From positions 96,001 through 160,000 of the forward strand of contig CAVUDW010000001.1 in the NCBI GenBank assembly GCA_963740355.1: 64,000 nt of DNA, in the 5' to 3' direction. The stretch is from an uncultured Gemmatimonadaceae bacterium (lineage in GTDB: Bacteria > Gemmatimonadota > Gemmatimonadetes > Gemmatimonadales > Gemmatimonadaceae). Below are positions 22,184-32,767 of the stretch, piece by piece. Position 1 is the first letter of the stretch. Each line of letters starts with the position of its first letter. The notes beneath the pieces were generated by a model, which did no database searches, was not told the origin of the DNA, and worked only from the letters and a program-made list of their open reading frames with translations. Made by a program: the position numbers and the translations under genes.

Positions 22184-23335
22184 TCAGGGCATACGACTCA
22201 CCAGGCGTGCCTTCATGCCGACGCGAATGGCCGGCTGATCGTGCCCGACGACCACGGCAGTCGCACTTTCCGGCGTCACGCGGACCACGCTCACCTGCGC
22301 CACGGTGTTGGCTGGCGCAATGTCCTTGCGTCCCTCGGTCAGCGGCACGCCGTCGGCGTACAGCGTGAACTGGTCACCGACCTTGCTGCTGGCGCCCTTG
22401 GGCAAGGCGATCACGACATAGTTCTGCACGGTGGGCAACACGACGCCGCCGGCGATCCATGCGACTTCGTACACCGGCCCGTTGCTGACATCCTGCGGTC
22501 GCACGGTCGACGGAACCGAGGTCGTGTCGATGGCCATCAGCACATCGCCGCGCTTCATGTTCGCAAACATTGACGTGACCTTCGCGCGAGCTGCGCGCCC
22601 CGATCCGAGGGCCACGATTTCCACCACACCGGCTGGCTGCATCAGTCGACGGCGAAGCTTGTCGCGATTCACCTCGGGGCCTTCCTGATAGACGCCGAAC
22701 TGCTGGCCGACCGCGCCGCGCACGCCCGTCGGCAACAGCACATCGACTTCGTCGAAGATCTGGAACTGATCACGCGTGAGCGCGGCAGAGACGACGGTCG
22801 GATCGGAGCGTGAGACGAGATGCCCACCGCTCGACTTCGCGTTCAGCGCGACGAGGAACGGCGCCGCCGCCGCTTCACCACGTCGCACGGTCGGACGCAA
22901 CGCGCGACCATTGATCGTGGCATTCTCGAGCACGGACACCGTCTGCCCCGCCATCGGCCGGCCGAGCGGAATGGCGCGCGTCGGTGGCGGTTCGGCGGTG
23001 TCGGTTTCGGCCGCTACCGCTTCCGGCGAGAAGGTCGGTCGGCCGTCGGCACCGACGTACAACTTCTGGCCCGGATAGATCAGGTTCGCGTTGGCAATCG
23101 TGCTGGTGTTGGCGCGGAACAGCTCGGGCCAGCGCAGCGGATTGCCGAGATACTTGCGCGCGATTTCATAGAGCGTGTCGCCCTGTCGCACCGTGTGCAA
23201 CACGGTGCCGGGCTTCGGAGCTGCCGTGCTGTCGCGCTGCTGCGCCTGTGCCAGGGCCGGCGAGCCGACGAGCAGCAGGGCGAGGATCACGTTACGCAGG
23301 CGGCGCGCAACAGGGGCCTTCGGATGACGGCGCAT
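22184..23335 (-). CDS. Secreted LysM-domain protein, TsaP-like architecture
   Basis: Signal peptide; HTVRQGDTLYEIARKYLGNPLRWPELFRAN...NLIYPGQ; beta-rich C-terminal domains. Start set at MRRHPK. Confidence 0.82.
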   Translation of the reverse strand: MRRHPKAPVARRLRNVILALLLVGSPALAQAQQRDSTAAPKPGTVLHTVRQGDTLYEIARKYLGNPLRWPELFRANTSTIANANLIYPGQKLYVGADGRPTFSPEAVAAETDTAEPPPTRAIPLGRPMAGQTVSVLENATINGRALRPTVRRGEAAAAPFLVALNAKSSGGHLVSRSDPTVVSAALTRDQFQIFDEVDVLLPTGVRGAVGQQFGVYQEGPEVNRDKLRRRLMQPAGVVEIVALGSGRAARAKVTSMFANMKRGDVLMAIDTTSVPSTVRPQDVSNGPVYEVAWIAGGVVLPTVQNYVVIALPKGASSKVGDQFTLYADGVPLTEGRKDIAPANTVAQVSVVRVTPESATAVVVGHDQPAIRVGMKARLVSRMP

Positions 23336-23703
23336 ACTGGTGGGGAGCGCGGGGATCGTCCACATCAAGCACGACGCGCGAAGCGGTCGCACCACGGAGG
23401 GGCCCCGCCACAGGTGCGGTTCCCCGATCAGGGACGAGTATCGGCCGCGGAGGAAACGTCGTGAGCGCAGGCCAGAGGAGCCCACAAACATCCATGCCCG
23501 AAATCGCCGGTTCTGATATGTCAGGCATTGCCTGATAGCGCCGCTGGACATCGTTACTCCGTCACCGTTCTATCCACCGACGAGTACTTCGCCGGCGACC
23601 CGCCGACCACCCGCACTCCCCCTCCGCCAATGCCAGGCGCGAGGGCTGCGTTGGGCCTTGCGCGACCGACCGAGCGACTTCACCCCTCTCGGGGAGCCGG
23701 CGC

Positions 23704-25731
23704 ATGGCCTTGGACACACAAATGCTGCATGCCGCACTGCAGCTGCCTCATGGGTACTGCTACCTCTGGGATCCGGGCCTGATCTGGCTGCACGCGCTCT
23801 CGGATGGCTTGATCGGTGCCGCGTACTTCGCGATCCCGATCGTACTGGCCCGCTTCCTTCGCCAGCGGAAGGACATTCCCTTCAACGGCATCGTCTGGTG
23901 CTTCGCCGTCTTCATCCTTGCCTGCGGCGCCACGCACTGGATCAGCGTCGTCAATATCTGGGTGCCGAGCTGGTGGACATCGGGAGGCTTGAAGGCGCTG
24001 ACCGCCGCCGCATCGCTTCCGACGGCCTTCCTGCTGCATCGCATGACACCGATGCTGGTTGCGTTGCCAAGCCCGACGCAACTGCACGCGGCCAACGCCA
24101 CACTCGCGGCAGAAATCGCAGAGCGCAAGAAAATCGAGCAGATGCTCCGCGAGTCGCAGGCCGAACTGGAAAAGCGCGTCGAAGAGCGTACCACCGAACT
24201 CGCGCGCGCAAATGCGTCCCTGCGCCTGCTCGAGTCAGCCGTGACACAGTCCACCGATGCGTTCACCATCACGACCGGCGATCTCGATGCACCGGGACCA
24301 AAGATCGTGTTTGCCAACCCTGCGATGACACGGATCACGGGCTACCCGCTTGACGACCTGCTGGGCAAGACGCCGCGAATCCTGCAGGGCCCAAAGACGG
24401 ACCATGAGATGTTGTCCGAAATGCGGCGTACCCTGACCGAGACGGGCGCATTCGCAGGCGAGACCCTGAACTATCGCGCGGATGGCGGTGAGTTCGTGAT
24501 GAGCTGGAAGGTGACCCCGATCCGCGACGAGGATGGCATGATCGGGCACTATCTCGCCGTCCAACGGGATGTGACGGAACAGCGCGATCTCGAACTCCAG
24601 TTTCGACAGGCACAGAAGATGGAAGCCGTCGGCCAGCTGGCGGGCGGAATTGCGCACGACTTCAACAACCTGCTCACCGCAATCCAAGGCAACTGCGCGC
24701 TGCTGATGGAGGATATACCAGCCCCGGATCCTCGTCGTGTGTTCGTCGAGGAGATCGACGATGCGGGCGCGCGTGCAGCTCGGTTGACACGGCAACTTCT
24801 CGCGTTCAGTCGGCGGCAGATTCGCCAGCCGACCGCGATCAGCCTCGACGTCGTCGTGACCGACGCGCTCCGCCTGTTGGGTCGCCTGCTCGGCGAACGC
24901 ATCGATGTTCGATTCGCACCCACCAAGGATCTAGGCCTGGTCTGGGCGGACCCCGATCAGTTGGAACAGGTGGTGCTGAACCTGGCGGTCAACGCGCGCG
25001 ACGCGATGCCACAGGGCGGCACCCTCACGATCGAGACCGCGAATGTGGAGCTCGACGGTGACTACGCCGGCATGCACATGTCCGTGATCCCCGGTTCGTA
25101 CGTGATGCTCTGCGTGACGGACACCGGTTCCGGCATGCCACCGGAGACGATCACTCGAATTTTCGAACCCTTCTTCACCACGAAGCCCGTGGGTCAGGGT
25201 ACCGGTCTCGGATTGTCCACGCTCTATGGCATCGTGAAACAGAGCCGCGGCAATGTCTGGGTGTATTCGGAGCCGGGTCGGGGCACCACCTTCAAGGTCT
25301 ACCTCCCGCGAGTGTCGGATCCCGCGGTCAGGGTGACGCGGCCCACTCCTGTGTCATCGACGCTCGTGCTGGGTTCGGGCGTTGTGCTGCTCGTCGAGGA
25401 TGACCCCGCGGTCCGCAGCCTTGCCGCACGCATGCTGCGACGCGCAGGATACGATGTGATCGATGCGGCGACGCCGGCGATCGCACTCGAGATTGCACGG
25501 GACGAGTCGGTCCACATCGACATCCTGCTGACGGATGTCGTGATGGCAGGTCTGACGGGGCCCGAACTCGCCGCTGCGGTCCGTGAACGACGACCCTCTA
25601 TCCGCGTCGCTTTCATGTCTGGGTACACCGACACGGCGCTCGACGCACACCAACTAGCGGACGCGCACGCTGTGCTCATCTCGAAGCCGTTCACGGGCAG
25701 TTCGCTCACCGCGCAGATCGCCAAGGTGTGA
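23704..25731 (+). CDS. Hybrid sensor histidine kinase: ETR1-like ethylene-binding TM domain, PAS, HisKA, HATPase, REC
   Basis: SDGLIGAAYFAIP...FILACGATH; PAS; H-box AHDFNNLL; DTGSGM, FEPFFTTK, GTGLGL; REC motifs LLVEDD, TDVVM, SKPF. Confidence 0.93.
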   Translation: MALDTQMLHAALQLPHGYCYLWDPGLIWLHALSDGLIGAAYFAIPIVLARFLRQRKDIPFNGIVWCFAVFILACGATHWISVVNIWVPSWWTSGGLKALTAAASLPTAFLLHRMTPMLVALPSPTQLHAANATLAAEIAERKKIEQMLRESQAELEKRVEERTTELARANASLRLLESAVTQSTDAFTITTGDLDAPGPKIVFANPAMTRITGYPLDDLLGKTPRILQGPKTDHEMLSEMRRTLTETGAFAGETLNYRADGGEFVMSWKVTPIRDEDGMIGHYLAVQRDVTEQRDLELQFRQAQKMEAVGQLAGGIAHDFNNLLTAIQGNCALLMEDIPAPDPRRVFVEEIDDAGARAARLTRQLLAFSRRQIRQPTAISLDVVVTDALRLLGRLLGERIDVRFAPTKDLGLVWADPDQLEQVVLNLAVNARDAMPQGGTLTIETANVELDGDYAGMHMSVIPGSYVMLCVTDTGSGMPPETITRIFEPFFTTKPVGQGTGLGLSTLYGIVKQSRGNVWVYSEPGRGTTFKVYLPRVSDPAVRVTRPTPVSSTLVLGSGVVLLVEDDPAVRSLAARMLRRAGYDVIDAATPAIALEIARDESVHIDILLTDVVMAGLTGPELAAAVRERRPSIRVAFMSGYTDTALDAHQLADAHAVLISKPFTGSSLTAQIAKV

Positions 25732-25769
25732 CCGCAGCTGAGGGTGCGGCGCAGCGTGAGCACCTGAAG

Positions 25770-25812
25770 GCAGAACGCCTCCCGTCGGATGGTGCGACGG
25801 GAGGCGTTCTGC
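25770..25812. terminator. 18-bp-stem hairpin after the kinase
   Basis: GCAGAACGCCTCCCGTCG-N7-CGACGGGAGGCGTTCTGC; no clear U-tract. Confidence 0.55.
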
Positions 25813-26200
25813 AACCGGAAAAGCGGACGGTCAAAATGGTACTATCCCATCGACGCCTTGTCGTTATTGCGTATATCGTGCAGATATAAAGACATACCGC
25901 ACGACGCATCGCAACCTTGTCGTTTTTCAGCCATCGATTCCATCTTCACGGCATCCATCGCGTCCATCAGACCTCTCCCGCGGTCACCATCGGGCGGTCT
26001 TCCGGCCGAGCAGTCACGACCCACACAGTGAGTATAAGGGGACTACCGTCGGCATGACCGTCGGACGTACCATTGACCCGATCTCGCGCCATTGCGGTGC
26101 ACCGCCGTTCTCAACGCGGCCGGCTAGCGGCATCGCGCAACTCCGGGGCATTGAATTTCGACCACAGCACGACGACCGCGCTGGCTCCCTCGCCGGGCTT

Positions 26201-27550
26201 CTAGTCAGGCCGATCTCCGGAACTACCAAACTGCGCCGGCGCGTCGGCAGGGTTTGAATACACTTTGATGCCACCGACGTCGGCAAACGGGAGCACATCG
26301 TCGAGCAGGCTTCCAACGCGGCCCAGGTCGCCTTGGAGCAGCAAGCTGTCGATTAGACGACCGGTCGGCATCCACCTCGTCCACGCAGACCGCCGCCACG
26401 CATCGCTGGCGCCATGTACAGGGCGCCCGGAACGCTCGTCGCTCCGTTCGCTCGTGCCCGCGCTGCCCTGACAAAAATGGCCGAGTCCATTCTTTCCGCG
26501 CGCGTCAAAGCCGACGTCGTCACGAGTCGGCGCCGAGTACGCCGTCACAGAATCGAGCGTCGGCGTCCGCTCGCGCAAAATGGGATCGAGCGTGACAACT
26601 TGATCGGGCCGGAGATCTGCAGCCAGTCGCAGTGGAGGGTAGCGGATCATTATGACGTCGATCCTTCTGGTGCCCGTCGGCGGTCCGGTCATGCGAGAGG
26701 TGCCGTCTAGCGCAGCCTCCGCGAATGCGCCGGCATAGGGTACCGTGACCCTCGCCCCGCCAATCGGACGGCCGCCCGCGTCCCGGATCGTACCGGCCAA
26801 TCGCGCACTCCCACGGGCCTGCGGGAGTTCGCGCGAGGGAGCGGAATCAGCGGAAGCTTTCGTGTCGCCAACCGTCGACGCGGCATCGAGCGCGCTCGGC
26901 ACGAGCATGTCCCGATGCAGCAACGGCGTCTCGCCCGGCAGTCTCAGTTCGATCCCGGCTGTGTTTCCGCGCCCACCGCTGTCGGCAATCACCGCGTACA
27001 GAGCAAGCGGCACGTCAGTCGGAACGCCTCAGATCACATACCGACCGTCGCGTCTGACCACGCCGACCGCACGCTCGGTGGTGCGCTCTTCACCTGCAGT
27101 CGAAATCTGTAGCGCGCCCCAGCCCACGATGACCTGCGCCGCATCGGGCACGTCTCCAGTCGCCGCGTCTCGTACGCGACCGAGGACGACGCGCGTGGTT
27201 TCGCGTTGCGCCCCGCAAAAGCCCGCATGGCACCCGGCAACGAGAGGTTCGCGGTCACTATGGCGCCGCGCCCCGTCACAGACAGCAACCGCGCCACAGC
27301 ATCGAACCCCAGCGAGTCGAATCGCGCGTGCTGAAAGCCGAATGTGTACTGCCCTACGGGTACGTCTCGGATCGCGAAGCGACCGGCGGTAGCTGAGATG
27401 GCAGTGAAGCCTCCGGACAACGGTGCGGCAGTTGGCACTGGCTGCACCCACGCCGCCATAAAATGACCACCAGCCAAGCTGTCGATGACTTCGCCTCGCA
27501 CGGCCACCTGAGCCCCAGCGGCGCTGGCAGTGAGAAGGTCCACGCTGCAT
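26201..27550 (-). pseudogene. Fragmented carboxypeptidase-regulatory-like (prealbumin-fold) domain protein with plug-like tail
   Basis: Pieces in several frames: AQVAVRGEVIDSLAG...GRFAIRDVPVGQY (27034-27543), GTIRDAGGRPIGGARV (26201-27013), DVGGIKVYSNPADAPAQF. The 5' signal peptide is broken. Confidence 0.6.
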
Positions 27551-28383
27551 CACACAAGGAAAATCCGACAACGCGGCATCAGGAAACCTCGGATCGAAAA
27601 ACGTTGGGCGACCACATCCTGTAAGTCGGTCCACGACTGAAGGGTCCACGATGACTCAAAATGAGGATGCGGCGGGCAGGGGTCTTTGACTGATGGTGCA
27701 CTCGCGGACGAAGCAGGGGAAGCGCTGTAGTTAAGGCGACGTGTTGCATGCGCGGTAATCGTGTTCGCGTTGACAGGCAACGACGCAGACAACGGCGCAG
27801 AGGCGGCCAGATCACACTTTCAAACCACCGGCATCGCAGGAGGCGTCTCACTAGGAACTGTGCCGCAGACCGTTCGACTGGATAGAGCCTGGTCGCAACT
27901 AAGCGCACTCTAGCGCGAGTGAGAGGCCGCGAACCGCCATGCTTGCCTTTTCGTCTGGTTACGGTACTATACCCGTGCGACATCTCTGCGCTCCATCCAG
28001 AACACGGTGTTTCGGTGACCGCGCAAGGGAACGCAGTCGTGTGGACGCCCGAGCAGGGGTCCTCCGACAGGTGCACGCTCTGCACACCGGTGTCGAAGTA
28101 CGAATTCCGCCCTGCTGGCCGTAGGTGGGGCTGAAATGCTCGAGCAATCAATGCACGCGACTGGTTTCAGACTGCGACCACGGAGCCACAAACCACGACA
28201 CGCAGCGGCGCTACCGGACAGCGGAAAACAGCGTCTCCCCGATCGCCAGTCGTAGCGCTCGGGGCACGCATGAGTGAGCACGGGCGCGCGTCACTTCCGA
28301 CGCCGCGCAACTGGGGTGGGGCACACGCGGTAGGCAACCGGACGGTGTGGGTCACTTCCCTTCTCATCAGCCAGGAGTTGCTC

Positions 28384-29877
28384 GTGACCGTACGAAATCG
28401 TTGGCTCAGTGTACCTACTGCCGCGCTTCTGGTGCTCGCAGGGTGTGCGCCAGATGTTAGGCAACCCGCCGAGCCCGAGGCACCAGCGGCTTTTCCCGTC
28501 GTCGCCGCGGTGGCGAAGAAAGTCCGTGGATCGGAGGTTGGTGGAGATCGACTCGGCTGCCTCGTGCAACAGCGCGACGCGGCAGGTGGCTTGGTGCAAA
28601 CGCACATCGAGGGCCCGCAACTTCGGCTTGCGCCGAGACGTGGCGTCGTTCACTTGACGGAAGTTGCGGTCTCGGATGGCGTCACCGCACAATGCTTTTT
28701 AACGCGCCGCGATACGATCGCCCGGGTCACGAGCGCGCTCCGACGCGTCGACCTCACTGCGGCCGTTTGGACGCAAGGCCGAGCAACGTCGGCAAGTGCC
28801 GCGGCACGAGGCGGACTCGCCAGACAGTGGCTCACCGCGAAAATGAACGCACTCCTCGGAGCAGAGGCGAACACGCTGAAGACTGCTGGCGTCTCATTGA
28901 CGCTTGGCGGCCTCCCCGACTGCCCGACGGACGTGATCTACATCGCTGGCAGCTGTCGAGCGAGGATCCACGGAGTGGCTGGTGACTCGTACATCTGGCT
29001 CGACCTGTATGATATCACGTTCAAGATGAGCTACGCGCCTGTCGAGATGTCCGTCTATCTGCCCACCGAAGAGCAGGTCATTCAGTGGGCCATCTGCCAA
29101 TTCTCGAGTGACATGGCGCAGGAGATGGACGCGGCGGCGCAGGTCGTACGAGCTGAATCCGACCTCGAGGCTGCAGCTTTCGCCCAGTCGGGCGGCAGCA
29201 CAATCATGTGCGAGCATGTGATGAACGTCGGCAACCGCGAATTGTGCATCGACTTGTTTATTCAGGAGCGTCGGATCGGCGCACCATTTACGTTCGGAGC
29301 GATTGTGGGAATGGGAGACAATCGCGGTTTTGACCCAGACGCGCCGCGGAAGGAGTCGCGGGTCCAAATCAATATCGACCCGGAGACTCTCGCGCTCAAC
29401 GCGTTCATCAATGGCAGCACGGTCGAGATCCTGGGGGGGTGGACGCGGACGTATGGCGGCGACGGCACCGTTATCATCCAGAATGACGGCCCGAGCCACG
29501 ACTGGCCCGCGAACGTGCGGCAGTTGTCATTTTCGCGCCTTAACGGTGATCCGAACACCGCCGTTCTCCAATATAACGTCGCTAACAATGTGTGTGGAAA
29601 CTGGAGTCAGTGTCCCACGATCACGGGCCGCTGGGTGTTCAACAAGAACCCAGCAGGTGTATGGGTGGTAAATACTGCTCAATCACGAACCGACACGTTC
29701 CCGTCCCAGTCCGTGAACCGGTATGATCCGGCCGGTGGCGTATTCCGTAGCGTGTTGGAGATTCCGGAGGATGTGAAGGCGAAACTCAAGGGCTTGGACG
29801 ACTTCCAGCAGATTGACGGACGCATCCGCGCTGAGCAGACCAAACTCTTCATTGGGACAGGCTGCAACGGGATGTAG
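28384..29877 (+). CDS. Hypothetical lipoprotein with a DUF3238-like C-terminal domain
   Basis: AGGAG site before GTG 28384; lipobox LAGC; long open frame; C-terminal FI...GDNRGFD...SRVQ...DTFPS pattern. Confidence 0.7.
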   Translation: MTVRNRWLSVPTAALLVLAGCAPDVRQPAEPEAPAAFPVVAAVAKKVRGSEVGGDRLGCLVQQRDAAGGLVQTHIEGPQLRLAPRRGVVHLTEVAVSDGVTAQCFLTRRDTIARVTSALRRVDLTAAVWTQGRATSASAAARGGLARQWLTAKMNALLGAEANTLKTAGVSLTLGGLPDCPTDVIYIAGSCRARIHGVAGDSYIWLDLYDITFKMSYAPVEMSVYLPTEEQVIQWAICQFSSDMAQEMDAAAQVVRAESDLEAAAFAQSGGSTIMCEHVMNVGNRELCIDLFIQERRIGAPFTFGAIVGMGDNRGFDPDAPRKESRVQINIDPETLALNAFINGSTVEILGGWTRTYGGDGTVIIQNDGPSHDWPANVRQLSFSRLNGDPNTAVLQYNVANNVCGNWSQCPTITGRWVFNKNPAGVWVVNTAQSRTDTFPSQSVNRYDPAGGVFRSVLEIPEDVKAKLKGLDDFQQIDGRIRAEQTKLFIGTGCNGM

Positions 29878-30113
29878 GAGCTGGGTCGCGGTGGTGGTTG
29901 TGGCCCAGCGACGTAACCATCCGGCGCTGGGTCACCGCCGAGCGATCTGCGTGGAACCCATGAGCAAGTAGCCAGCGCGTCTCGGCTCGCAGTTGCTCGT
30001 GACTTTGGACGGTGCCCTGCCGAATGCTCCATGCCAGCTTTGTCGCAGATGAGCATGGTGCTGCCGGTGCCACGGCCGCGGTAGAAGTCTTCTTTCGCTG
30101 TGAGAGTGTCGCG

Positions 30114-30611
30114 ATGTACAGCCGCGCCCTGAATTGGTGTCTCCGTCTCCTCCTCGACCTGTATGGTGAGTTCGCGCGATTCGCCTGCGCCTCCGCCATA
30201 GTGACCTGGGTGAGCACAGGAGCCCTGATGCTATTGAGCCGAAGCGTGACAATACGGAGTGCGCTCTTCAGGGACCCCAACGTCTCGTGTGCCACGCTAA
30301 CGGACTTTGTGGAGGTTGGCCGCACGATAGCGTATACGCTGCCGGTGCAGTTCTTCGCCTTTATTCCTATTCTTGCGGCAGTTCGCGTGCTGCAGTGGCG
30401 TGGTGCTCCAGCAATGGTGACGCGAGCTGGCGCAGCGGTCTTCTGCGCCGTACTGGCGGGCGTTGTCGACTTTGTGCTGATTGCCGGCGTCTATGCCAAC
30501 GTGCATGAATTCGGGGCGCTGATCGGTATTACGGGCGCCGCCATGTACGGACATTCGCGACTCAGCCAGCCGCTCGCGCCGCTGCACCACGACTTACGGT
30601 TTGGAAAGTAG
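30114..30611 (+). CDS. Hypothetical small multi-pass membrane protein
   Basis: About four hydrophobic segments; start uncertain (ORF track starts at 30012). Confidence 0.45.
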   Translation: MYSRALNWCLRLLLDLYGEFARFACASAIVTWVSTGALMLLSRSVTIRSALFRDPNVSCATLTDFVEVGRTIAYTLPVQFFAFIPILAAVRVLQWRGAPAMVTRAGAAVFCAVLAGVVDFVLIAGVYANVHEFGALIGITGAAMYGHSRLSQPLAPLHHDLRFGK

Positions 30612-30675
30612 CGTAGCGGCAGCGTGGGGCACACCGTCGCGACCTGCCGAACTACTGGGGGCTGATCGTACGGCA

Positions 30676-31974
30676 TTAGTCGCGGCAGTCCTGGCGGTAT
30701 GCGAGACCAGTGTGGCGAAGCTCTGCCAGAACTGAGCGCGACGTTGCGAGCTGTACCGCCATTCGATCGACAACCGTCTCGCGTGGAAGGTCGAGCGCTT
30801 GGCTCACGCCAGCGACAACTAAGGTGACGCTGCGCGCCGTGCCGGCCAATAAAAGCGAGCGCGGCAGGGTTCGGCAGTGCAGCACCGCCACTCGGTATGC
30901 AGCACCCAAAATATCAACGTCCTGCGCACCGTCCGTGTGCGTTGCAAAGGACAGTGTGTCAAAACGGATATCCTCCGAAAGCGCCTTGGCAAGCCGACGC
31001 TTGGCTTCAGACGCCGACGGCGAGTTGCTGAGCTCGAAGACCGAACGGCCTTGGGAGCCACCAATTGCCCGCGCGAGCGCTTCCTGCACGAAGTACGGGT
31101 AGAGATACGGCGCCTCGCGGTCCCGCAATGAGTGCGTCAGCGCCACGTGAGTCAGCTCGTGCGACGAGAAGCCAGCGCCCCGTGGCGCCATAAAGCTCAC
31201 GCTCGGCAGTTGTGCGGCAGCCACGGTGAAATCTCCGTAGTACCCGTCGCGCCAGCGAACTGGGAAGTGCTGTACAAATGACGCCGCACTGACAAAGGCC
31301 ACGATGAATGCGGGGCGTTTCGCCCGGCCGCCTACTATGTCTTCGATTTGTCTTAAGGTATCCGCGAGCGCGCGCGGAAGGTCGCTCGAGACTCCTGTCT
31401 CTGTGACGTAATTGACGGTGTCGATCTGGACCAGCCTCAGGGCGGCATTCATGTCTTGAATGCCATGCGGATCGAGGGGGCTAGGGAGCACACCGACGGC
31501 GCCCAAGCGGAATACGCCAGCGGCACGGCCGTCGATCGAGGCGCAGACAAGCGCGTTGAGCGAGGCATCTGGACCGTGCGCGTCAGCATCACTCGCGGTC
31601 CCGTAGGAGAGCTCCGTCCCTGGCGACTGTGACTGCAGCCAATACGCGAACAGGATTCTGTCGATCGTTGCGGTCCCATCCTTCAAGGTTGCGGGAGCGC
31701 CAAGCGATTCGTGCAAGAGCCGCGTCAAACGAGACGCGACGCTGTCTGGAAGGCGGGTCCGTGGGGTGTTCGCAACATGCGCGCAGCTGTCACCCCCAGA
31801 CTGCGTCGGCAAAACTCTGGCTTGGGTCGCAGGGCTTCGTGCCATGCCCGTCTGCAAGCAACCGGTGACCACAAATGCGAGGGCGACGCGCAAACCTCCG
31901 TGAGATGGCCGGGCCCACATGACAGTTGCCCGCATCAGACGCACGATGCGAGGCGCGTTGAGAGTGCTGCGCAT
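30676..31974 (-). CDS. Hypothetical exported protein with gluzincin (clan MA-like) metallopeptidase motif
   Basis: SHELTHVAL (HExxH) followed about 20 aa later by PYFVQEALA; possible lipobox VTGC; start uncertain (up to 32088). Confidence 0.6.
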   Translation of the reverse strand: MRSTLNAPRIVRLMRATVMWARPSHGGLRVALAFVVTGCLQTGMARSPATQARVLPTQSGGDSCAHVANTPRTRLPDSVASRLTRLLHESLGAPATLKDGTATIDRILFAYWLQSQSPGTELSYGTASDADAHGPDASLNALVCASIDGRAAGVFRLGAVGVLPSPLDPHGIQDMNAALRLVQIDTVNYVTETGVSSDLPRALADTLRQIEDIVGGRAKRPAFIVAFVSAASFVQHFPVRWRDGYYGDFTVAAAQLPSVSFMAPRGAGFSSHELTHVALTHSLRDREAPYLYPYFVQEALARAIGGSQGRSVFELSNSPSASEAKRRLAKALSEDIRFDTLSFATHTDGAQDVDILGAAYRVAVLHCRTLPRSLLLAGTARSVTLVVAGVSQALDLPRETVVDRMAVQLATSRSVLAELRHTGLAYRQDCRD

Positions 31975-32191
31975 GTTTGAGGGGCGAATGCGGAGGAGGG
32001 TGATGCAAGCGCGTCGCGTACCGCAGTGCTGAAGTGTAACGCCGCCGACGCGCCGCCGAACCAGAAGCACCGAATCGCTCACAAGCACACCGCGACCGAC
32101 CAGGCATCGCGACGCCGCGTCGCGGGCTGGCGTCTCGCGTGCGTCGTGCGGGTCGACCCCGGTTGCGCGGCCACGGCGCGATCGGAAACAC

Positions 32192-32228
32192 GACGCCCCT
32201 GGAACCCGATTTGGATTTCGGGGGCGTC
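32192..32228 (-). terminator. Hairpin downstream of ssb
   Basis: GACGCCCC...GGGGCGTC stem followed by GTGTTT on the minus strand. Confidence 0.5.
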
Positions 32229-32254
32229 ACGCATCATGCAGTCCAGCTGGGGTT

Positions 32255-32767
32255 CTAGAACGGCAGATCGTCCTCTTCGTCCTCGAGCGCACCCGGGAAG
32301 TCGGAGAACTCGTCACCACCGCTCTTCGCAGCCGAGGCGGCCGGCTTGGACGCTGGTGCTGCGGTCCGCGCCGGACGGGCCGATGCGCCGGAGTACGAGC
32401 CACCCTCCGACTCGCCATCACCACGACCACCGAGCAGGATCAGCTCGCGCACGCGAATCTCCGTGGAGTACCGCGTCTGGCCTTCCTTGTCCTGCCACTG
32501 ACGGTATTCGATGGCGCCCTCGACATAAACCGGCTTGCCCTTCTTGCAGTACTGCTCGACCACGTCGGCCAGCTTCTGCGTCCCCTGGTTCCAGGCGATG
32601 CACTTATGCCATTCAGTCTTCTCCTGCTTGTTGCCCGACTGATCGTTCCAGGTACGGGACGTGGCAAGGGAGAAGCTGGCGACACGACCGCCGCCGGGGG
32701 TGGACCGAACCTCGGGATCATTCCCGAGATTCCCCATCAACATGACCTTGTTCAAGCTGCGTGACAT
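32255..32767 (-). CDS. ssb: Single-stranded DNA-binding protein
   Basis: SLNKVMLMGNLGNDPE, TEWH, acidic tail DDLPF. Confidence 0.98.
   Translation of the reverse strand: MSRSLNKVMLMGNLGNDPEVRSTPGGGRVASFSLATSRTWNDQSGNKQEKTEWHKCIAWNQGTQKLADVVEQYCKKGKPVYVEGAIEYRQWQDKEGQTRYSTEIRVRELILLGGRGDGESEGGSYSGASARPARTAAPASKPAASAAKSGGDEFSDFPGALEDEEDDLPF

Follow-up and report, generated by a model that had tools for sequence, protein, structure and literature searches.

The closest described systems are as follows. In Arabidopsis, ethylene is perceived by ETR1, the three-helix Cu(I)-containing ethylene-binding domain (EBD) of which carries D25, Y32, I35, P36, I62, C65, H69 and K91, and is followed by a histidine-kinase domain and then a receiver (PMC6586836, PMC10266040). 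C65 and H69 of ETR1 hold Cu(I) at 1:1 (PMC6586836); the Y32A, I62A, C65Y and H69A mutations lower ethylene binding (PMC8879215); and high-affinity binding and signalling depend on the coupling of Asp25 to Lys91 (PMC10266040). AzoEtr1 of Azospirillum brasilense keeps all seven residues essential to binding by ETR1, its D35, C75, H79 and K98 align with D25, C65, H69 and K91 of ETR1, its fragment AzoEtr1[1-130] displays saturable binding of 14C-ethylene, and its D35A and C75A alleles were made as non-binding mutants (PMC11819568). The cyanobacterial receptors have one N-terminal cysteine, versus two disulfide-forming cysteines in plants, and SynEtr1 (slr1212, Synechocystis PCC 6803) possesses a second sensory domain that makes it a two-input receptor (PMC6682694). 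Here, we describe a hybrid histidine kinase encoded at positions 23704-25731 of a 64-kb stretch of DNA (hereafter the window) from an uncultured Gemmatimonadaceae bacterium, which is a further member of the known, large bacterial family of EBD kinases, and neither a plant-like oddity nor a CckA protein. To our knowledge, bacterial ethylene receptors have been proven in two species only.

The gene, the parts of its product (numbered in amino acids, aa) and the hairpin that follows it are:

23704..25731, plus strand: hybrid histidine kinase open reading frame (ORF), complete, 675 aa, ATG start
23746..23760, plus strand: N-terminal PHGYC motif, aa 15-19, with the single, presumably extracytoplasmic cysteine C19 (comparison of homologues)
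23779..24066, plus strand: ethylene-binding-type domain, Pfam ETR1_N, aa 26-121, three helices (Pfam, AzoEtr1 alignment, AlphaFold2)
24064..24294, plus strand: LPSPTQL joint (aa 121-127) and helical linker to the PAS domain (conservation, AlphaFold2)
24295..24579, plus strand: LOV-like PAS domain, aa 198-292 (Pfam PAS_9, 6e-15; PDB matches; alignment)
24631..24819, plus strand: HisKA dimerisation and phospho-acceptor domain, aa 310-372, with H318 (Pfam, residue check)
24949..25311, plus strand: HATPase_c catalytic domain, aa 416-536, with N, G1, F and G2 boxes (Pfam, residue check)
25384..25719, plus strand: C-terminal receiver, aa 561-672, with D566/D567, D611, S639 and K661 (Pfam, residue check)
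25770..25812, plus strand: hairpin with a perfect 18-bp stem and a 7-nt loop, 39 nt past the kinase stop codon, a possible terminator or mRNA-end hairpin

A profile search, which the original prediction had named as a possible refutation, assigned the N-terminal region to ETR1_N (PF25487), with an ungapped match to positions 2-97 of the 97 in the profile (E 4.4e-33; 113.9 bits for a cut-off of 27), and no rival Pfam family appeared over residues 1-125 at E ≤ 1. The genome-wide profile scan gave 118.5 bits for the same domain. The ORF of 675 aa and the residues first read from the DNA were all found in place: D34, Y41, I44 and P45 in helix I; I71, C74 and H78 in helix II; and the LKALTAAAS segment, which contains K97, in helix III. 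The pattern D-x6-Y-x2-IP-x25-I-x2-C-x3-H occurs only once in the six frames of the 64-kb window.

To compare this protein with a proven ethylene binder, the 525-aa AzoEtr1 ORF was taken from the plasmid record of A. brasilense Sp7, and its D35, C75, H79 and K98 residues were found at the positions published in PMC11819568. A tblastn search of PLSDB with the N-terminal 156 residues of the window protein retrieved 20 plasmid records, seven of them from Azospirillum. In BLASTP, the window protein aligned with AzoEtr1 without gaps over residues 14-142, at a constant offset of −1, and the identity was 48% over residues 14-127. The matched pairs are D34/D35, Y41/Y42, I44/I45, P45/P46, I71/I72, C74/C75, H78/H79 and K97/K98; thus, the putative copper ligands C74 and H78, which lie one turn apart in helix II, match C75 and H79 of AzoEtr1. 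With this alignment and the published equivalences as an indirect bridge to ETR1, the constant offset of −1 translates into an offset of +9 through helices I and II. The gapless +9 initially claimed therefore holds for the seven residues of these two helices, and gives way to +6 in helix III (K97 versus K91), the loop ahead of that helix being shorter by three residues, as it is in AzoEtr1.

These residues are typical of the whole family. A word-indexed protein search with residues 1-135 retrieved 333 proteins, and all of the 120 that were listed contain PF25487, joined to many cytoplasmic architectures. The seven residues and the lysine occur at identical spacing in 116 of these 120 homologues, which makes the spacing a family signature rather than a chance pattern, and PH[GS]xC occurs in 118 of them. 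In an alignment of 81 EBDs, D34, Y41, C74, H78 and K97 are invariant, while I44, P45 and I71, as well as P122 of the LPSPTQL joint, are kept in at least 90% of the sequences. A profile built from the 81 EBDs matched 10,286 of 1.84 billion cluster representatives at E ≤ 1e-3 (8,224 at 1e-10 and 4,113 at 1e-30), and the rarity that the original prediction had implied is thereby contradicted. As a separate observation, some genomes of the same family harbour divergent ETR1_N copies (L012 in G415 and L013 in G292, match region about 1441-1863), which keep the equivalents of C74, H78, Y41 and I71 and miss the PHGxC motif; the substitutions are D34 to Asn, I44 to Val and K97 to Asp in L012, and P45 to Ala and K97 to Ser in L013. 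Judging from these changes, both copies may be low-affinity or repurposed variants.

The AlphaFold2 model of residues 1-139, computed with 81 aligned relatives as input, has a mean predicted local distance difference test score (pLDDT) of 87.4 and comprises three long helices (24-54, 61-83 and 90-120). They are followed by a linker helix (124-138), which would continue as a helix past residue 138. The hydropathy peaks are clear for helices I and II and weaker for helix III. A basic loop (RFLRQRK) joins helices I and II, in keeping with a predicted topology with the N-terminus outside and the C-terminus inside.

The complete domain order is ETR1_N, coiled linker, LOV-like PAS, HisKA, HATPase and receiver (Pfam). 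The HisKA, HATPase_c and Response_reg matches each score above their Pfam cut-offs, as expected of a hybrid HisKA-class kinase, and the catalytic residues are intact, namely H318, N430, the DTGSGM, FEPFFTTK and GTGLGLS motifs, D566/D567, D611, S639 and K661. An ethylene-binding-type domain with the seven binding residues and the Asp-Lys pair, placed on a kinase and receiver with intact catalytic residues, stands as first described, and its interpretation is supported to the extent that sequence allows.

Similarly to AzoEtr1, the window protein is a bacterial kinase of the EBD-PAS-HisKA-HATPase type, the EBDs aligning without gaps with the seven binding residues and the lysine matched. Unlike it, the window kinase has its own receiver, whereas AzoEtr1 is devoid of a receiver and its gene is adjoined by a response-regulator gene (PMC11819568). 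In addition, the PAS domain of AzoEtr1 is not LOV-like, and its gene lies on a 1.75-Mb plasmid in a root-colonising host. With SynEtr1 and GeiEtr2 (Geitlerinema), our protein shares an N-terminal EBD, a single N-terminal cysteine and histidine kinase signalling, and GeiEtr2 has PAS domains and a C-terminal receiver as well (PMC6682694). Compared by description, these two cyanobacterial proteins differ in their GAF or cyanobacteriochrome light-sensing domains, in place of which the window kinase carries a single LOV-derived PAS domain lacking the photoactive cysteine. ETR1 differs in its two N-terminal cysteines, its GAF domain in place of our PAS, its pre-helix-III loop, which is three residues longer, its location in the endoplasmic reticulum, and its output, which proceeds via CTR1/EIN2 and not by phosphorelay. 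No GAF family was found in the window kinase at E ≤ 1 in Pfam, the PAS domain occupying its place. Hence the label "plant-type" suits the transmembrane domain; it does not suit a protein without GAF, the EBD of which belongs to a large bacterial branch.

We infer a mechanism (copper loading, ligand, sign of regulation and output) from what was observed here, namely the ORF, its family membership, the conservation of all residues for binding and catalysis, a model with three helices and the lack of an adjacent partner gene. C74 and H78 of helix II would hold Cu(I), with D34 of helix I serving as a ligand or as an orienting residue, and this site would bind membrane-dissolved ethylene or a small alkene like it. 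A polar bridge between D34 and K97 would relay the change to helix III, from which the signal would reach the kinase core by way of the LPSPTQL joint, the helical linker and the LOV-like PAS domain. The result would be an altered autophosphorylation of H318 and an altered transfer of the phosphoryl group to D611 of the protein's own receiver; the output may then involve an Hpt protein or a response regulator encoded elsewhere, or the receiver may be the end point. In our view, it is fairly likely that the gene encodes a functional membrane-bound ETR1_N hybrid kinase operating in this way, and that it was acquired horizontally from another Gemmatimonadales lineage inside the 8.8-kb insertion described below. 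The protein is probably an ethylene or alkene sensor.

Several points weigh against this proposal. First, the ligand, the copper loading and the phosphorylation are predicted by sequence comparison, for the window protein and its Gemmatimonadota homologues alike, so that ethylene binding by this protein is itself a prediction, and the comparison with ETR1 passes through AzoEtr1. Second, the near family-wide conservation of the seven residues (116/120), in a family with very few assayed members, speaks for family membership more than for the identity of the ligand. Third, a search of the PDB by sequence with residues 1-156 gave chance matches only (E ≥ 0.27), a Foldseek search of the PDB with the AlphaFold2 model gave no match at E ≤ 0.001, and the model is that of a monomer without copper. 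Fourth, no RNA sequencing run was listed as containing the kinase gene. Fifth, no gene for ACC (1-aminocyclopropane-1-carboxylate) deaminase was found in the organism's own genome, which is 94.5% complete, and nothing independent ties the organism to plants.

The alternative that best survives this comparison, which we nevertheless regard as unlikely, is that the copper-loaded transmembrane domain senses a cue other than ethylene, either another small unsaturated or pi-acid molecule of the membrane, or the copper or redox status, in which case "ethylene receptor" would be a family label only. The members assayed are few (plant receptors, SynEtr1, AzoEtr1 and one fungal protein; PMC11819568) as compared with the 10,286 matching cluster representatives, the site has been likened to that of an odorant receptor that relies on Cu(I) to detect organosulfur compounds (PMC10266040), and the failure to find an ACC deaminase gene points in the same direction. 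Nevertheless, every ethylene-binding residue of ETR1 is kept, and the domain is 48% identical to that of a proven ethylene binder. We also know of no family member that uses another ligand physiologically, which counts against this alternative.

The PAS domain calls for a second comparison. In the PDB search with the whole protein, the best matches confined to this domain are LOV chains, and whole-protein alignments to the YtvA-FixL and PpSB1-FixL LOV fusions place P224 (24373-24375) at the position of the adduct-forming cysteine and M266 (24499-24501) at that of the second flavin-binding asparagine, while R225, Q228, N256 and Q287 are retained. The features of a LOV photoreceptor, namely the adduct cysteine in GxNCRFLQ and two flavin-binding asparagines, are thus not all present, and the domain is, by its residues, a LOV-derived PAS without the canonical photocycle. 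The G..PR.L.G motif is confined to the 11 closest of the 120 listed homologues and to the three nearest of the 16 related loci checked; the cysteine form occurs in none of the 120. The four orthologues compared retain both P224 and M266, and this, together with the motif, implies that selection acts on the PAS domain. It could accordingly be argued that this domain, which aligns with LOV and keeps four of its residues, is the real sensor, using flavin or another cofactor to report on redox state or a metabolite, and that the main role of the three helices is to anchor the protein in the membrane and to dimerise it. We find this quite improbable: the transmembrane domain is far more conserved than an anchor needs, with D34, C74, H78 and K97 invariant in 81 sequences that have diverse cytoplasmic domains, and the photoactive cysteine and one flavin-binding asparagine are missing from the PAS.

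Returning to the proposed ethylene-type kinase, the original prediction had described it as an orphan, and the neighbourhood confirms that description: apart from the receiver of the kinase itself, tblastn with two receiver queries detected none in the 64-kb window, and a family scan of 22 neighbouring ORFs revealed neither REC nor Hpt. Elsewhere in the genome, there are four Hpt matches above the cut-off, all inside long open frames. The name "CckA-like" fits the kinase core, of which the closest solved counterpart in the PDB is the DHp-CA (dimerisation and histidine phosphotransfer, catalytic and ATP-binding) core of Caulobacter CckA (PDB 5idj, E 1.9e-59; 5idm), likewise a hybrid kinase with a C-terminal receiver. 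It does not extend to the whole protein: the sensor region is another one, the scores for the NCBIfam CckA equivalogs are 414 and 356 bits for cut-offs of 1000, and ChpT was not found in the genome, the best HPTransfase match being at E 0.0015 and all eight matches lying within long kinase-like open frames. In the closest full-length relative (67-70% identity), a convergent gene for a single-domain receiver lies directly downstream (L044 6113-6805, minus strand); the next relative does not have it, and no clear ortholog was found in the genome studied here (best match, 38-39% identity). The L044 locus also has a Ser/Thr protein kinase gene upstream; the window has neither that gene nor the receiver gene.

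The kinase ORF is uninterrupted and starts at the first ATG downstream of a stop codon, with a Shine-Dalgarno-like GGGGAG located 8-13 nt 5' of it. Its GC content by codon position (0.66/0.46/0.77) resembles that of the flanking core genes. The hairpin at 25770-25812 is very stable (z = −5.8; none of 200 shuffled sequences folded equally well), has no T-run, and has a stem sequence that occurs only once in the whole genome; such a unique, stable hairpin past the stop codon suggests that the kinase gene is a monocistronic unit. A scan for promoter and terminator consensus sequences, which covered one promoter type, found none above shuffled sequences, hence no sigma-70-like promoter upstream. 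Four DNA sequencing runs share small fractions of the words of the gene (0.07-0.17), which bears on neither its expression nor the habitat.

Upstream of the kinase, the minus strand encodes a LysM protein, an epimerase and TolQ-TolR-TolA-TolB-Pal; downstream come ORFs without a family match, and then ssb, a GNAT acetyltransferase, TsaB, TsaE and UvrB. The four genomes of the same genus that we compared have the order UvrB-TsaE-TsaB-GNAT-SSB-LysM-epimerase-TolQRAB, and the DNA homology to them ends at 23209-23466 and restarts at 32242-32257. The gap between the SSB and LysM genes is only 44-140 bp in three of the four, and the fourth has a different insert of 3.3 kb. It follows from this break and from the short gaps that the site is variable and that the kinase gene occupies a strain-specific insertion of 8.8 kb there:

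23467..32256, no strand: strain-specific 8.8-kb insertion between the LysM-protein gene and ssb, comprising the kinase gene and ORFs of unknown function

As to signs of a mobile element, this insertion showed no tRNA and no convincing repeats at its flanks, and none of the ORFs scanned matched an integrase or transposase family. Several of its other ORFs have a codon-position GC unlike that of core genes. One of its ORFs (30676-32088, minus strand, 470 aa) has no Pfam or NCBIfam match and contains a HELTH (HExxH) motif; in a language-model atlas, it has weak leads (0.93, with 131-135 features in common) to a peptidase MA cluster and to hypothetical proteins that are most frequent in Gemmatimonadota. 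Another (28270-29877, plus strand, 535 aa) has a coding-like GC pattern, no family match and no usable atlas hit, and was not found in five same-genus genomes with the query used; it may be a lineage-specific gene or a non-gene.

The idea that the kinase gene is recently acquired cargo, silent or unwired and functionally inert in this strain, could draw on its location among ORFs of unknown function in a strain-specific insertion, and on the failure to find a partner gene nearby, a sigma-70-like promoter or an ortholog of the L044 receiver gene, but seems very unlikely to us given the intact ORF, the presence of every catalytic residue, the core-like codon-position GC, the GGGGAG before the start and the single promoter type covered by the scan.

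As to the origin of the gene, its best full-length match (67% identity) is found in a different family of the order, and the other five Gemmatimonadota copies compared are 43.7-48.4% identical (43.7-45.2% for the three from the same genus); the neighbours of the window kinase recur beside none of the compared copies. The window sequence, in a quick maximum-likelihood tree limited to 128 columns for 82 EBDs, groups with three Gemmatimonadales records (Shimodaira-Hasegawa-like approximate likelihood-ratio test, SH-aLRT, 96) inside a Gemmatimonadota clade of 14 rows (94), and the same-genus copies form a separate clade (98). The approximately unbiased (AU) test rejects a clade uniting the window with four same-genus copies (difference in log-likelihood 52.6, p = 0.0067), this group having been set by genus kinship, yet tested after the tree was seen, which weakens it as support for the transfer. 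By these sequence relationships, the window gene is not an ortholog of the same-genus copies. Transfer within the order is the simplest reading; old paralogy with differential loss would be the other.

Bacterial EBD proteins are already on record, many in proteobacteria and cyanobacteria with diverse outputs (PMC7700396), and an alignment of 1,221 EBDs has been published (PMC10266040). Our scan of one genome per prokaryote species with two peptide patterns, which bias the sample since they derive from Gemmatimonadota, yielded at least 599 stretches, at least 530 of which encode a relative. The 80 relatives retained from these are distributed among Acidobacteriota (48), Gemmatimonadota (16), Pseudomonadota (11), Cyanobacteriota (2), Binatota (1), Deferrimicrobiota (1) and one unranked lineage. 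Pfam analysis of 40 of the 80 kept ORFs found ETR1_N above the cut-off in all 40 and a receiver too, as in hybrid kinases, in 19; the order EBD-PAS-HisKA-HATPase-receiver occurs in 14. Within Gemmatimonadota, the distribution of ETR1_N is patchy in samples made mostly of draft genomes, where absence means not found in those searched: the genome studied here has a single copy, and the domain was detected in four of 19 other same-genus genomes, over the cut-off in five of 41 relatives including our own genome, and in 11 of 401 genomes of an even sample of the phylum. One same-genus genome (G013) has two ETR1_N matches on different contigs (L003 and L007), copy number thus varying within the genus. 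We found no paper tying a bacterial ethylene receptor to Gemmatimonadota, the co-mentions being plant-microbiome studies; some surveys and primary papers lie beyond this search, and an earlier mention is possible.

The locus leaves existing knowledge of the ETR1_N family unchanged. What goes beyond the ordinary is the host phylum, undocumented for this family in the literature searched, the clear acquisition by insertion, and the LOV-type domain devoid of cysteine. The domain is abundant in seldom-cultured soil lineages, namely Acidobacteriota, Gemmatimonadota and Burkholderiales, and this locus is a well-defined Gemmatimonadota example with intact signalling residues, which makes it a reasonable candidate for binding assays aimed at the breadth of bacterial ethylene sensing. 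More speculatively, the small Gemmatimonadales clade of the window protein and its closest relatives, in which an EBD is fused to a LOV-derived PAS without cysteine, with Pro and Met fixed (11 of the 120 listed homologues; three of 16 loci), could be a two-input receptor of a membrane gas signal (ethylene or another alkene) and of a light-independent flavin, redox or metabolite signal, seemingly moving between lineages on small insertions. We offer this idea as a doubtful one; if true, it would extend ethylene sensing to this phylum, and perhaps to habitats without an evident plant link.

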